From the IMG/VR virus record IMGVR_UViG_2579778666_000008: a stretch of DNA of 5,985 nt. The stretch is one strand, 5' to 3'. Every line of letters begins with the position of its first letter. Positions within the stretch are counted from its first letter, which is position 1. Positions 1-2,599 of the stretch are shown in pieces. Position numbers and translations under genes: made by a program. Source of the stretch: a virus. Lineage: Duplodnaviria; Heunggongvirae; Uroviricota; Caudoviricetes. Below the pieces are notes generated by a model. That model was given only the letters and a program-made list of their open reading frames with translations. It did no database searches and had not been told where the DNA came from.

Positions 1-939
1 CGGGACCGTCTGGTCGCAGTACTGCCCGATGGCATACAGCGCCCACTTGTCCACATCCGCCGCCCCCAGACGTTTTCCCATGCCGTAGCGCGGGTGAGTC
101 AGCATGTCCCACAGACACCAGGCCGGGTTGTTGCTGTATGCCGGTTTCAGGCTGCCGTCCCAGATACCGCTGTACGTGCGTTTTTCCGGGTCATAGTTTG
201 ACGGCACCTGAATGATGCGACCGCGGATATGGTAGTTCACCGTCATCTGCTGGCCGCCGAACTGCTCCGCATCCACCTGCAGCCCCACAATGGCCGTGTT
301 CGGGTAGCACTGTTTCACATCGATGATTTCGGTGTATGACGACCACAGCGTCTTATTCTGCAGCTGGTCCGTGGTGCTGTCCGCTGTCTCCCGGACCATC
401 CGGATGTTAAAGGGCCGGGGAGGCAGATTATCCAGAATCACCGAGGCCAGGAACTGTGAGGTGGTCTTGCCGTTAATGGTGACGTCCTTTTCTGTCACCC
501 AGTTACCGTTACGCTGTAACTGAATCAGCAGGCGGACAGACGTCGGGTTACGGTCACCCTTTGAGGTGGTCTCCACCAGTGACTGCACCCCGAAGGTAAC
601 CCGCAGGCGGTCAATGTTCGCGGACGTAATGGTGCGCGTCACCGGCTTTGCCTTCGTCACTTCCACACCCAGTACAGTTTCAGCTCCGGAGGACTCAAAG
701 CCTTCCGGTGGTGTCTGCTCCTGCTCCCCGGCGCGCCAGACCGCTGTCACACCGTGTATCACGGGATTACCGTCCGTGTCCGTCAGCGGGGTTTTGTTCA
801 CCAGGATACTCTGCAGTCCCTTCACCGGGCCTTCCACCGGTCCCTCACCACTGGCATCAATCACGCTCATCATCTGCGTGGATTTGAGATTATCCTTCGC
901 CTCACGAGGTGTGTGTGCCTTACCGCCACCTTTTCCCAT
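1..939 (-). CDS. J: Tail tip / host-specificity protein J, N-terminal 313 codons; the 3' end lies beyond the left edge of the window
   Basis: Hand translation of the minus strand from ATG at 939..937 gives MGKGGGKAHTPRE..., matching the lambda J N-terminus as I recall it (MGKGSSKGHTPREAKDNLKS). The frame stays open through position 1 with no stop (checked codon by codon). Codons at the left edge translate to ...SNNPAWCLWDMLTHPRYGMGKRLGAADVDKWALYAIGQYCDQTVP, near-identical to the corresponding lambda J segment. A GGAAGG Shine-Dalgarno sits 4-5 nt upstream of the ATG (minus strand, about 944..952). Not in the ORF track, presumably because no stop codon falls inside the window. Confidence 0.9.
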   Translation of the reverse strand, partial: MGKGGGKAHTPREAKDNLKSTQMMSVIDASGEGPVEGPVKGLQSILVNKTPLTDTDGNPVIHGVTAVWRAGEQEQTPPEGFESSGAETVLGVEVTKAKPVTRTITSANIDRLRVTFGVQSLVETTSKGDRNPTSVRLLIQLQRNGNWVTEKDVTINGKTTSQFLASVILDNLPPRPFNIRMVRETADSTTDQLQNKTLWSSYTEIIDVKQCYPNTAIVGLQVDAEQFGGQQMTVNYHIRGRIIQVPSNYDPEKRTYSGIWDGSLKPAYSNNPAWCLWDMLTHPRYGMGKRLGAADVDKWALYAIGQYCDQTVP

Positions 940-1042
940 ACAGCCTTCCCCTGAATAAATTAACCGCCACTTGCCATTCCGTACAGAAGTCGGATATCCT
1001 TCGCCCGAAAAGCATGAAACACATTTCTGCCATGCTAAAGAG

Positions 1043-1072
1043 AAACCCCGGTATCAGCAGATACCGGGGTTT
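1043..1072. terminator. Perfect 13-bp hairpin (AAACCCCGGTATC / 4-nt loop AGCA / GATACCGGGGTTT) flanked by T-rich tracts on both strands; putative bidirectional intrinsic terminator
   Basis: Seen directly: 1043..1055 pairs perfectly with 1060..1072, and the GC-rich core CCCCGG pairs with CCGGGG. On the plus strand it is followed by TTTTCTTTCAT; on the minus strand by TTTCTCTTTAG. It lies in the I-J gap, about 100 nt upstream of the J start. Confidence 0.55.
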
Positions 1073-1144
1073 TCTTTCATGCCCACCGATAATCCTGTTG
1101 GTTAAAACCGGTAATGGCATAAAAATTCTGAATATCTTCACATT

Positions 1145-1172
1145 TTCACACACTGACTGTGGCGCTTATAAT
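1145..1172 (+). promoter_or_regulatory. Candidate sigma70 promoter: -35 TTCACA (1145..1150), 16-nt spacer, -10 TATAAT (1167..1172); predicted start near 1179
   Basis: Seen directly: a perfect consensus -10 hexamer and a 5/6 match to the -35 hexamer at near-optimal spacing, in an AT-rich context. It points away from J and toward the terminator at 1237..1270. Confidence 0.4.
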
Positions 1173-1178
1173 TTCTCT

Positions 1179-1270
1179 GCGTTAATTTTTTTGTCGTGAT
1201 ATAAGAATAATTCCTTAACTCTAATCTTTGTCTGTCCCCGCAGCTCCGCGATCACTGCGGGATTTTTTTT
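1179..1270 (+). ncRNA. Candidate small non-coding RNA of about 90 nt (moron-type), running from the predicted start to the intrinsic terminator; the 5' end is uncertain and may lie near 1133 if the weaker upstream promoter is the one used
   Basis: A promoter and a terminator on the same strand are about 90 nt apart with no plausible ORF between them (only a few codons are open in any plus frame after the start). The body is AU-rich and ends in a GC stem plus U8, the usual architecture of Hfq-type sRNAs. It sits in a gap that is much shorter in lambda, as far as I recall. No homology to a named sRNA can be asserted from memory. Confidence 0.3.
1237..1270 (+). terminator. Rho-independent terminator, plus-strand oriented: stem CCCGCAG (1237..1243) / CTGCGGG (1255..1261), 11-nt loop, then A + T8 (1263..1270)
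   Basis: Seen directly. The T8 run follows the stem only on the plus strand; the minus-strand reading has an A-run before the stem and no U-tract after it, so it is not a terminator for the tail operon. It ends 7 nt before the I stop codon on the opposite strand (convergent). Confidence 0.7.
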
Positions 1271-1277
1271 ATTCTTT

Positions 1278-1958
1278 TTACCCCTGCCGCCCGATAACCA
1301 CGACCTTTCCGCCCCCGCCTTCATCACGGGTACTGATGTCCTGGGATATACGGCGGGAGCCAACCAGCATTTCCCCGTAGGGCACCGGCATCGGGTTACC
1401 CTGGGCAATCATGTTATCCAGTGACGAAAAATACGTGTTCTGTCTGCCGTTATCCGTTGCGCGGTAATCCGGTGTTTTTGCCTTCGGGGCCAGCATCTGG
1501 GCCACACCGCCCAGTATCATGCTGGCCCCCAGTGAAAACAGCATCGTGGTGGCAGAAAAACCGCCGGCACTCAGGGCTGTACCCCATAACGCCATCGAGG
1601 CACCGGCAGTGAGGAAAGAGCCCACGATGGCTGCCGCCCCCAGCACAATCTGCAGTCCACCCTTTCCGGCCCCGGCCAGTCGCGGCACAATATGGATAAC
1701 CGTTCCCTCACCCAGTGGTTCGTGAAGGCGGGCATACACCGCCTCCGGTGCCGTATCCTCACCGGCAATGCGTATCTGGTACCAGCCTTCGTTCATCTGA
1801 CGGCGAAAGCCCGGCACCTGTAACGACAGCGCCCGGATGGCTTCCGCTGCCGTGTTCACATACAGGCTGAGGCGGCGGCCAAATCGTTGTAAATCCCCGT
1901 GAAGGCAGATGCGTGCCAGTGGCGGTGACGCCAGACAGAATGCGTTCGTCGTTGCCAT
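1278..1958 (-). CDS. I: Tail tip assembly protein I (lambda gpI family)
   Basis: 226-aa ORF with ATG at 1958..1956 and TAA at 1280..1278. The N-terminus has the conserved ...ARICLHGDLQRFGRR... motif and the C-terminal half is the Gly/Ala-rich hydrophobic region typical of gpI. Its 5' end overlaps the 3' end of K by about 100 nt in another frame, as in lambda. A GAGAGG Shine-Dalgarno-like sequence lies upstream. Confidence 0.9.
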   Translation of the reverse strand: MATTNAFCLASPPLARICLHGDLQRFGRRLSLYVNTAAEAIRALSLQVPGFRRQMNEGWYQIRIAGEDTAPEAVYARLHEPLGEGTVIHIVPRLAGAGKGGLQIVLGAAAIVGSFLTAGASMALWGTALSAGGFSATTMLFSLGASMILGGVAQMLAPKAKTPDYRATDNGRQNTYFSSLDNMIAQGNPMPVPYGEMLVGSRRISQDISTRDEGGGGKVVVIGRQG

Positions 1959-2599
1959 TTTTCGGAATACCTCTCCCGTTTACTCAGTTGTTCAGGCAGA
2001 TGGTGAAGCAGCTCACCGTTGCCGCAGTAAATGGCGGCATGGTTCGGTACCGAAGCACCAAAGCAGCACAGCAGAATATCGCCCGCCTGTGCAGAGGACA
2101 GGGGCACCCGGTAAAAGCCGGTGACCGCCATATTGTCCAGGTAAAGGTTCTGACCGTTGCGCCACCAGTCATCCTCGCGATGAAAATCCGGCATTTCAGT
2201 CCCCGCCAGATGATAAGCATCCCGGAACAGCGTGTAACAGTCCGTCACCCCGTGCTCAAAGCGCCGTCCTGTCAGATGTGGCACACAGCGGAATTTGTGA
2301 ATGTCACCCCGGCAGACCAGCCACCAGGGCAGTGCGCTTTTTATCTGCAGCCGCCGGTCAGCCTCGCTCAGCCAGGGCAGCCCACCGGGATGACTGTGGA
2401 CCAGTGCCACAATCTCCCCCTGCATCTCTGCCCGCAGCCAGTCTTCCGGTGCGATACGAAAATACGCCTCCGGCTCTGCGGAAATATTCACACAAGGGAT
2501 ATACCACTCCCCCTCCGGCGTGCTTATCACGAAGCCGCACGACTCCGCAGGCGCACACCGCCGGGCATGCGCCAGAATCGCTGATTCTGTCTCTGTCAT
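1856..2599 (-). CDS. K: Tail tip assembly protein K (lambda gpK family), with an N-terminal JAB/MPN metallopeptidase-like domain and a C-terminal NlpC/P60-like domain
   Basis: 247-aa ORF starting MTETESAILAHARR, as lambda K does. A complete JAMM motif is visible (E...HSHPGGLPWLSEAD, i.e. H-x-H-x7-S-x2-D). The C-terminal part has NlpC/P60-like Cys and His residues (GVTDCYTLF..., ...NHAAIYCG...). It starts 5 nt after the L stop. Confidence 0.9.
   Translation of the reverse strand: MTETESAILAHARRCAPAESCGFVISTPEGEWYIPCVNISAEPEAYFRIAPEDWLRAEMQGEIVALVHSHPGGLPWLSEADRRLQIKSALPWWLVCRGDIHKFRCVPHLTGRRFEHGVTDCYTLFRDAYHLAGTEMPDFHREDDWWRNGQNLYLDNMAVTGFYRVPLSSAQAGDILLCCFGASVPNHAAIYCGNGELLHHLPEQLSKRERYSEKWQRRTHSVWRHRHWHASAFTGIYNDLAAASACM

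Follow-up and report, generated by a model that had tools for sequence, protein, structure and literature searches.

In phage lambda and phage 21 the tail genes I and J are separated by 60 bp, whereas 338 bp (positions 940-1277) lie between the same two genes in a 5,985-nucleotide stretch of the IMG/VR virus record IMGVR_UViG_2579778666_000008 (Caudoviricetes), the whole of which we refer to as the window. What does this additional DNA encode? An earlier note, made from the sequence alone, had correctly put the lambda gap at a few tens of base pairs and had read the spacer of the window as a single AT-rich insertion, a moron-like cassette with its own transcription signals and no credible open reading frame (ORF). 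Here, we show that the feature is real and that it is explained by an already published locus, that of the small RNA (sRNA) PasB, together with a variant leader of gene J. At a probability of roughly 85%, positions 1113-1277 are a complete gene of the PasB family, encoding an sRNA that acts in trans on Hfq, and stand beside a separate J-leader module.

Two modules in the I-J gap

The ORF coordinates agree with a gap of 338 bp at 940-1277, and both flanking genes lie on the minus strand. The gap is compositionally distinct, as had been claimed: G+C is 41.7% over the whole gap, 35.8% over 1113-1277 and 34.7% over 1081-1230, where a hand count had given about 35%. The flanks, which had been put at 60-65%, are slightly lower at 59-60% (58.8% over 1-939 in J and 60.5% in gene I). 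Four ORFs of 44-96 amino acids overlap the gap and have zero matches to PHROG families, and related spacers differ from each other by indels of 1-5 nt that are not multiples of three; hence there is no credible ORF in the gap.

Alignment of the I-J junction with those of lambdoid prophages, a check that the earlier note had proposed, set the boundaries of a cassette at about 1113-1277 and of a second segment, module B, at 940-1112. On these alignments the 338-bp gap is two modules with different histories, joined near 1112, and not one insertion, given that module B is fully identical in about 1,442 E. coli genome records and that the adjoining PasB part of these spacers is, in PPompW phages, only about 86% identical to that of the window. 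The spacer is extra DNA relative to lambda, but the cassette makes up only part of it, and the strong hairpin that had been counted among its signals (1046-1073) belongs to the J-leader module. The cassette is the widely shared part of the spacer and is matched by 137 phage records. Of the two database searches that had been suggested for 940-1277, BLAST returned the related spacers and Rfam 15 gave nothing: at E <= 1 over the whole window its sole match was a chance small nucleolar RNA inside J, with none in the gap. The parts of the cassette are as follows.

1113..1277, plus strand: PasB cassette of about 165 bp (A+T-rich block, promoter, transcript, terminator), which aligns with the PasB locus of E2348/69 and with 12 Stx/lambdoid phage spacers
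1119..1144, plus strand: A+T-rich block 5' of the -35, beginning ATAAAAATTCTGAATATCTTCACATTT, present in 13/13 intact BLAST-collected spacers
1145..1150, plus strand: -35 hexamer TTCACA from the promoter scan, the same in E2348/69
1167..1172, plus strand: -10 hexamer TATAAT from the promoter scan, the same in E2348/69
1179..1270, plus strand: predicted primary transcript of the PasB allele, about 92 nt, with a putative start at G1179, 7 nt past the -10
1208..1228, plus strand: single-stranded RNA core UAAUUCCUUAACUCUAAUCUU, the best conserved part across 60 alleles, unpaired in the single and in the consensus fold
1237..1270, plus strand: Rho-independent terminator with stem CCCGCAG/CUGCGGG (1237-1243, 1255-1261), 11-nt loop, A1262 and U8 at 1263-1270

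Identity with PasB of E2348/69

PasB is an 83-nt sRNA of enteropathogenic Escherichia coli (EPEC) O127:H6 E2348/69, encoded in prophage PP6 between E2348C_1436 and E2348C_1437 (minus strand, NC_011601.1 1466343..1466261; PMC8550237 Table S6). These two genes are I and J; their gap is 240 bp, and PasB lies antisense to them, beginning 6 nt past the I stop. The published northern probe, AATCCCGCAGTGATCGCGGAGCT (PMC8550237 Table S6), matches the window exactly at 1242-1264 on the minus strand, with 0 matches in 200 shuffles, and the RNA is therefore on the plus strand. Aligned with E2348/69, the window shows no difference from -35 to -10 or in the terminator.

Both loci are placed directly after the I stop, antisense and before J, with the same upstream block, promoter, terminator and U-tract, and the last ~45 nt of the two RNAs are identical. 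The 5' ~45 nt of the RNA body differ by many substitutions and small indels (GUCGUGAUAUAAGAAUAAUUCCUUAACUCUAAUCUU in the window, GCCCGAGUAACAAAAACAACUCCUUCACAUUGAUCUUCAU in E2348/69), and the difference in spacer length, 338 bp versus 240 bp, is due to unrelated J-proximal modules. Family traits of PasB seen in the window are homology that includes the probe region, the antisense position between I and J, a sigma-70 promoter of its own and a Rho-independent terminator whose U-tract is not shorter than 6.

Transcription signals and the predicted RNA

The -10, the -35, the terminator and the strong hairpin that had been listed from the letters alone were all recovered by the consensus scan and by folding. 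The sigma-70 promoter, TTCACA-16 bp-TATAAT, agrees with the consensus at 11/12 positions, and the scan found 3 promoter-like sites compared with 0.9 +/- 0.8 in shuffles. Promoter and terminator are both on the plus strand and thus antisense to the tail operon. The description of a cassette inside a late operon, which was silent on strand, was right about the location, but the signals point the opposite way. The T-tract of PasB ends only 7 nt from the I stop codon, and U8 at 1263-1270 is a tail of the type that binds the proximal face of Hfq.

The transcript coordinates were transferred from NC_011601.1 1466343..1466261 through the alignments. The 5' end mapped in E2348/69 then falls at about 1192-1193 of the window and implies an RNA of about 78 nt; the published end of the 83-nt PasB sits just past a U7 run (the equivalent of window 1179-1193). 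Its offset from the predicted start may be due to RNase cleavage, within the U-run, of a primary transcript of ~98 nt, to inaccurate mapping from the read coverage or to a misjudged start.

The core at 1208-1228 contains the family motifs UAAYUCCUUA and UAAUCUU, and its UCCUU is complementary to the Shine-Dalgarno sequence AAGGA. It is most likely the seed of the RNA, as a candidate chosen on conservation and folding. Zhu et al. place a putative seed just upstream of the terminator (bioRxiv 10.64898/2026.05.13.724894). The A+T-rich block at 1119-1144 looks like an UP element and may also be a regulator site; it served as the search pattern for the later allele sets, and its conservation in those sets is by construction.

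A CRP-like palindrome with one mismatch, TCTGA-N6-TCACA, shared by all alleles, is found at 1135-1150, overlapping the -35. A class II CRP site was considered here and rejected; the centre lies near -36.5 from the predicted start and not at -41.5.

Expression and partners of orthologous alleles

RNA sequencing of EPEC gives baseMeans for pasB of 482 (activating conditions) and 1082 (non-activating conditions), as against 4.8 and 15 for the flanking I and J (PMC8550237). The high values for pasB next to the low ones for I and J indicate that, in a lysogen, transcription of the E2348/69 unit does not depend on the late operon, and the independent transcription that the earlier note had anticipated is thus borne out at the orthologous locus. 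Loss of hfq changes pasB by a log2 value of -6.8 (activating) and -2.4 (non-activating), and PasB of E2348/69 has been detected by northern blot with Hfq-dependent stability (PMC8550237). Expression of the window allele itself is probable from the identity of its promoter and terminator with those of the expressed E2348/69 gene.

Ligation and sequencing of interacting RNAs (RIL-seq) lists 37 partners of PasB, namely 30 coding sequences or 5' untranslated regions (UTRs), 4 3' UTRs or intergenic regions and 0 sRNAs; the number of chimeric fragments was 258 in activating and 1820 in non-activating conditions (PMC8550237). In 99-100% of the chimeras PasB stands as the second RNA, and partners from the accessory genome account for <= 2% of its chimeric fragments (PMC8550237). 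A classical trans-acting sRNA that depends on Hfq has this profile. Zhu, Shabalina and Storz 2026 describe PasB as embedded in a phage structural-gene operon and broadly distributed (bioRxiv 10.64898/2026.05.13.724894). In EPEC, PasB is higher in the non-activating conditions, which resemble lysogeny broth, than in Dulbecco's modified Eagle medium.

EcOnc22, EcOnc23 and EcOnc24 of EHEC Sakai

A second experimental data set appears to concern the same gene family. EcOnc22, EcOnc23 and EcOnc24 are homologous peaks of Hfq obtained by cross-linking and analysis of cDNA (CRAC) in enterohaemorrhagic E. coli (EHEC) O157:H7 Sakai (PMC4104026, Table S2), and EcOnc22 gives a northern band of about 85 nt that is destabilised in a delta-hfq strain (PMC4104026). 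The coordinates of Tree et al. 2014 refer to an older version of the Sakai genome, and two landmarks served to calibrate the offset relative to NC_002695.2: it is +128 to +143 from AgvB1, and +123 to +131 from the tR' end of StxS (EcOnc15), a point only 23 kb from EcOnc22. Calibration on PasA/EcOnc51 was ambiguous, given two terminators 148 nt apart. With the +128 offset, EcOnc22 corresponds to 1143-1203 on the plus strand of locus L015, within a PasB homologue with a predicted start at 1138 and a T-run end at 1227, and EcOnc22, 23 and 24 map to the I-J gaps of prophages Sp15, Sp14 and Sp11, respectively. Uncorrected, the EcOnc coordinates would put an Hfq peak on the J-proximal hairpin, a placement that the +128 offset rules out.

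In common with the window, the three peaks have its promoter block, its core motifs AACUCCAUAAC...UUAAUCUUC and its CCCGCAG/CUGCGGG terminator. The Sp15-type allele (H195) is about 72% identical to the window cassette and differs in having AATAAT as its -10 and a short-type spacer. The alignment and the +128 calibration together support the equivalence of PasB with EcOnc22-24, which would merge the two experimental data sets. EcOnc is unmentioned in Zhu et al. (bioRxiv 10.64898/2026.05.13.724894), and the PasB row in Table S6 of PMC8550237 names no EHEC homologue, unlike the rows for PasA and PasD. As an observation on the coordinates themselves, the offset of about +128 bp against NC_002695.2 holds at least from 1.94 to 2.93 Mb, and the raw values mislead mapping throughout that range.

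A mosaic family of alleles

We assembled the allele set from the 13 intact BLAST-collected spacers and about 120 IMG/VR loci found through the conserved promoter block. From about 140 related loci, 60 distinct promoter-to-terminator alleles were obtained, some only about 70% identical. What they have in common is the A+T-rich block with the -35, TTCTGAANNTCTTCACATTT, a -10 in one of the forms TATAAT, AATAAT, GATAAT or TATCAT and, in the RNA, GCGUUA followed by a U-run and the motifs UAAYUCCUUA and UUAAUCUU. The segments between these conserved features occur in a few discrete versions that are variously combined. All alleles keep a terminator, with a CCCGCAG/CUGCGGG base that is almost invariant and loops of 4 to 16 nt. 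A compensatory pair, CCCACAG/CUGUGGG, is found in one allele, and in the most divergent alleles the stems are wholly different. The consensus fold consists of the terminator and an unpaired body, and the antisense arrangement right after the I stop is kept in every allele examined. The PasB family is therefore far more polymorphic and mosaic than a single-query BLAST suggests, with conserved ends and conserved core motifs.

The window allele combines the 5' part of the commonest IMG/VR allele (L046 type) with the 3' part of the L032 type. New here, besides the equivalence of PasB with EcOnc22-24, is this mosaic allele, which is absent elsewhere in the collections searched. The cassette as such is common: at least 1,612 of the 5,426 complete E. 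coli genomes carry it (at least 30%). A scan of one genome per species with the promoter block found it in Escherichia albertii only, besides three tiny contigs that are probable contaminants. From BLAST of phage records the cassette appears near-universal in its tail-gene lineage, which argues that it is not a recent insertion in one phage.

Several loci deserve mention in their own right. In the Stx2a phage Stx2_EH1846 (LC567840.1, locus L013, 297-527) the 3' two-thirds of PasB and its terminator are kept next to I, and sodC (Cu/Zn superoxide dismutase), running in the PasB direction, has taken the place of J and the promoter side; this sodC is a classical protein moron that landed at the PasB spot. 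A contig assigned to Asaia platycodi (L019) and an IMG/VR contig (L069) have the end of an IS629/IS1203 insertion sequence between the -35 and -10 of PasB, 97% identical to the annotated Sakai element and amounting to a natural PasB knock-out. The three tiny contigs of the species scan (L019, L020 and L022, from assemblies of A. platycodi, Parendozoicomonas haliclonae and Streptomyces flavalbus) carry the E. coli prophage tail region, L022 being 96.6% identical to window 1-2406, and look like E. coli contamination in those assemblies.

The J leader and its hairpin

The remainder of the gap, between the cassette and J, has a different make-up.

940..1112: module B, the long J leader of 173 bp, one of two alternative leaders
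1046..1073: perfect 12-bp hairpin AACCCCGGTATC-AGCA-GATACCGGGGTT, flanked by an A-tract and a T-tract
1078..1123, minus strand: second stem-loop, predicted, in the late sense and just upstream of the terminator-like hairpin

About 1,442 complete E. coli genome records contain module B at 100% identity. Among phage records it occurs only in the PPompW type, and in other phages a module of 75-100 bp replaces it. The hairpin at 1046-1073 is followed by UUUCUCUUU in the late-operon sense and by UUUUCUUU in the PasB sense, and looks like an intrinsic terminator in both directions. Folding it gives z-scores of -5.4 and -5.3 for the plus and -6.4 for the minus strand, and 0/200 shuffles fold as well. 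The fold of 1030-1130, at -42.6 kcal/mol on the minus versus -37.6 kcal/mol on the plus strand, does not decide the strand.

Short-type spacers have a hairpin of their own, which the scan calls a late-sense terminator in E2348/69 and whose stem shows the compensatory variants CACCC/GGGTG and CATCC/GGATG. Lambda and phage 21 also have a hairpin and T-run in their 60-bp gaps, annotated as a terminator in the phage 21 record. As in the window, these are G+C-rich hairpins followed by a T-run in the late sense shortly before the ribosome-binding site of J. The window hairpin has no sequence similarity to them and differs further in its greater length (12 bp), in its distance from the J start (about 95 nt instead of about 20 nt) and in its T-runs on both strands. 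The counterparts in lambda, phage 21, E2348/69 and the short-type spacers suggest that a terminator-like element before J is an ancestral feature of the junction, constant from lambda onward, and the sRNA cassette lies upstream of it, between I and this element.

An IMG/VR contig (L119) carries a variant of module B that lacks exactly the hairpin, through a 47-bp deletion between two TTTCT repeats, so that the hairpin is dispensable in at least one natural prophage. An apparent second copy of module B in a PPompW phage was discarded, since the match was no more than the palindromic hairpin aligning with itself. In short-type spacers (for example L011, L036 and L044) a 7-nt unit, TGTCTGA, immediately upstream of the J ribosome-binding site is present in 2 to 4 copies, depending on the phage.

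Proposed mechanism and alternatives

We propose that the RNA would be transcribed from its own sigma-70 promoter, starting near 1179 and stopping at the intrinsic terminator at 1237-1270, to give a product of about 80-90 nt with an unstructured U/A-rich body, a 3' hairpin and then U8. In a lysogen the tail genes would be silent and the sRNA would be made independently of them, bound and stabilised by Hfq. It would pair in trans with host mRNAs, mostly from the core genome, through the UAAYUCCUUA...UAAUCUU core, which is anti-Shine-Dalgarno-like, and would thereby probably alter the translation or stability of its targets. Promoter and terminator would stay constant across alleles, with the body between them shuffled by recombination, in which case the alleles probably differ in their target sets. 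The hairpin before J would stop transcription that has not been antiterminated from entering J, and in the window would also stop transcription leaving J toward the PasB promoter, to be read through by Q-modified polymerase in lytic growth. We infer the identity of the seed, repression at ribosome-binding sites, the differing targets and the role of the hairpin from these features and from the orthologous data.

Several points weigh against this account. In E2348/69 the 5' end was mapped about 13-15 nt downstream of where the -10 predicts transcription to start, and the putative seed of Zhu et al. only partly overlaps the core at 1208-1228. Zhu et al. also state that the function of PasB is not elucidated (bioRxiv 10.64898/2026.05.13.724894), and the literature holds no validated PasB target or phenotype. 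No Rfam 15 model matches, so that membership in the family stands on homology of sequence. The exact transcript of the window is absent from the other 59 alleles and was not found in the 5,426 complete E. coli genomes, where the best full-length identity is about 88%. For the J leader, the terminator role of the hairpin is deduced from shape and position, and it went unflagged in the simple scan, since its T-run is able to pair with the A-run upstream. Lastly, Sakai prophage Sp12 carries the long spacer with module B, and the table of PMC4104026 lists no Hfq peak there.

The same antisense position could mean that PasB works mainly in cis, through a duplex of about 90 bp with the I-J spacer of the late mRNA that is cleaved by RNase III, or through convergent interference. 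The synthesis of J would then be uncoupled from that of the upstream genes or throttled relative to it, and pairing in trans would be secondary. We regard this as unlikely but worth keeping in mind, given that the position right after the I stop is never lost among the alleles examined, that the cassette is in all cases bounded by I and by a late-sense terminator-like hairpin that precedes J, and that antisense RNAs, OOP and paQ among them, are in use in lambdoid phages (PMC7547250). However, tail mRNAs are almost absent from the lysogen in which PasB is abundant, I and J are not among the RIL-seq partners named in the supplementary text of PMC8550237 that was searched, and the chimeras with the accessory genome stay at or below the 2% given above. 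The pattern of conservation also points away from a purely cis role, which would leave unexplained that the body varies freely and short core motifs are fixed, since any sequence complements its own antisense. A search for trans sites of the window PasB seed in the late mRNA of the window itself gave no signal (best -24.6 kcal/mol versus a shuffled mean of -27.5). Titration of a core sRNA, as by the anti-sRNAs AgvB and AsxR, is highly improbable. EHEC prophages are known to encode such RNAs, in which the 5' region varies and the terminator is conserved (PMC4104026), and the PasB family likewise has a variable body between constant ends, but its 37 RIL-seq partners include 0 sRNAs and 30 coding sequences or 5' UTRs, the Rfam models of AgvB and AsxR do not match, and the locus is I-J and not downstream of PR'.

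Regarding the other parts of the gap, module B might encode a second small RNA, either a plus-strand RNA of about 70 nt that ends at the hairpin or late-sense stem-loops from 1123 to 1044. A weak promoter (TTGCCA at 971, 18-bp spacer, TATCCT; 971-1000, 9/12), predicted structure that is strong on both strands (z -5.3 to -6.4) and the complete identity of module B in about 1,442 records, while the adjoining PasB body varies, would fit such an RNA. We nevertheless consider it very unlikely: the plus-strand promoter match is weak, no late-sense promoter was seen for it by scan or by eye, the module B copy in Sakai Sp12 is without a listed Hfq-CRAC peak, Rfam gave no match, and the invariance of module B makes covariation uninformative. 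A natural variant (L119) lacks the hairpin, and a simpler J leader with a terminator, with shorter counterparts in lambda and Stx phages, covers the same features. To the notion that the signals of the window are relics, as non-functional filler or as what is left of a protein-coding moron, we give next to no weight. The exact mosaic allele has not been seen elsewhere, and natural knock-outs exist (IS629 in the promoter spacer and sodC replacing one flank); against this, the promoter and terminator do not differ from those of the E2348/69 gene, which is expressed, the core motifs have been preserved, no ORF of the gap has a family match, and allele indels are not multiples of three. A decayed protein gene, which the earlier note had itself raised as a way to be wrong, is thus highly improbable.

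A PasB-family sRNA gene next to a separate J leader remains the preferred reading of the spacer. A further extension of it, which we consider quite unlikely as a whole, is that the I-J spacer is a recombination cassette for sRNA specificity, in which the promoter block and the terminator would serve as constant handles for recombination to reassort the body segments, giving each prophage its own seeds and targets, possibly with gating of J and a further RNA from module B.

Comparison with morons and anti-sRNAs

Morons, as the term is used by Juhala et al. 2000, are exemplified by bor and lom of lambda. The window resembles them in having extra DNA between genes that are adjacent in relatives (338 bp versus 60 bp in lambda and phage 21), with a lower G+C than the flanks and its own promoter and terminator signals, and the moron trait of expression from the prophage is seen at the orthologous E2348/69 locus. 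Unlike a classical moron, it carries a non-coding RNA without any supported ORF, and it is near-universal in its tail-gene lineage instead of sporadic. The label of a moron-like cassette therefore fits the form of the promoter-terminator unit and the extra DNA, and its cargo is the sRNA PasB that had already been described.

AgvB and AsxR are short Hfq-binding anti-sRNAs of prophages, located at a moron site downstream of PR' (PMC4104026). They are like PasB in their variable 5' part, their conserved terminator and their allelic series across lambdoid prophages, and differ in their locus and in that the RIL-seq partners of PasB are mRNAs and not sRNAs. We rejected an identity of the window RNA with AgvB (RF02702) or AsxR (RF02703): there is no Rfam match at E <= 1, the sequences are unrelated and the locus is in the tail operon.

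Given that the element is already published, the value of the present analysis lies mainly in annotation. Neither RefSeq nor Rfam labels the locus, though at least 30% of complete E. coli genomes carry the PasB cassette. If the alleles do differ in their targets, prophage content would tune the post-transcriptional regulation of the host strain by strain.

Tail genes of the window

The remaining ORFs form the tail module of a lambdoid prophage.

5940-3637, minus strand: H
3644-3303, minus strand: M
3303-2605, minus strand: L
2599-1856, minus strand: K
1278..1958, minus strand: tail assembly gene I from the ORF list, stop 1278-1280, annotated as tail tip assembly protein I in BLAST matches
1..939, minus strand: 5' part of the host-specificity gene J, ATG 939-937, annotated as host specificity protein J in BLAST matches

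The orthologue of I in E2348/69 has a later start in RefSeq (582 nt versus 681 nt), which leaves the true start of I uncertain. In its longest form, the I ORF overlaps the end of K by 103 nt (1856-1958), as in lambda. The translated J product begins with MGKGGGKAHTPREAKDNLKSTQ, preceded by the Shine-Dalgarno sequence GGGGAAGG at 951-944.

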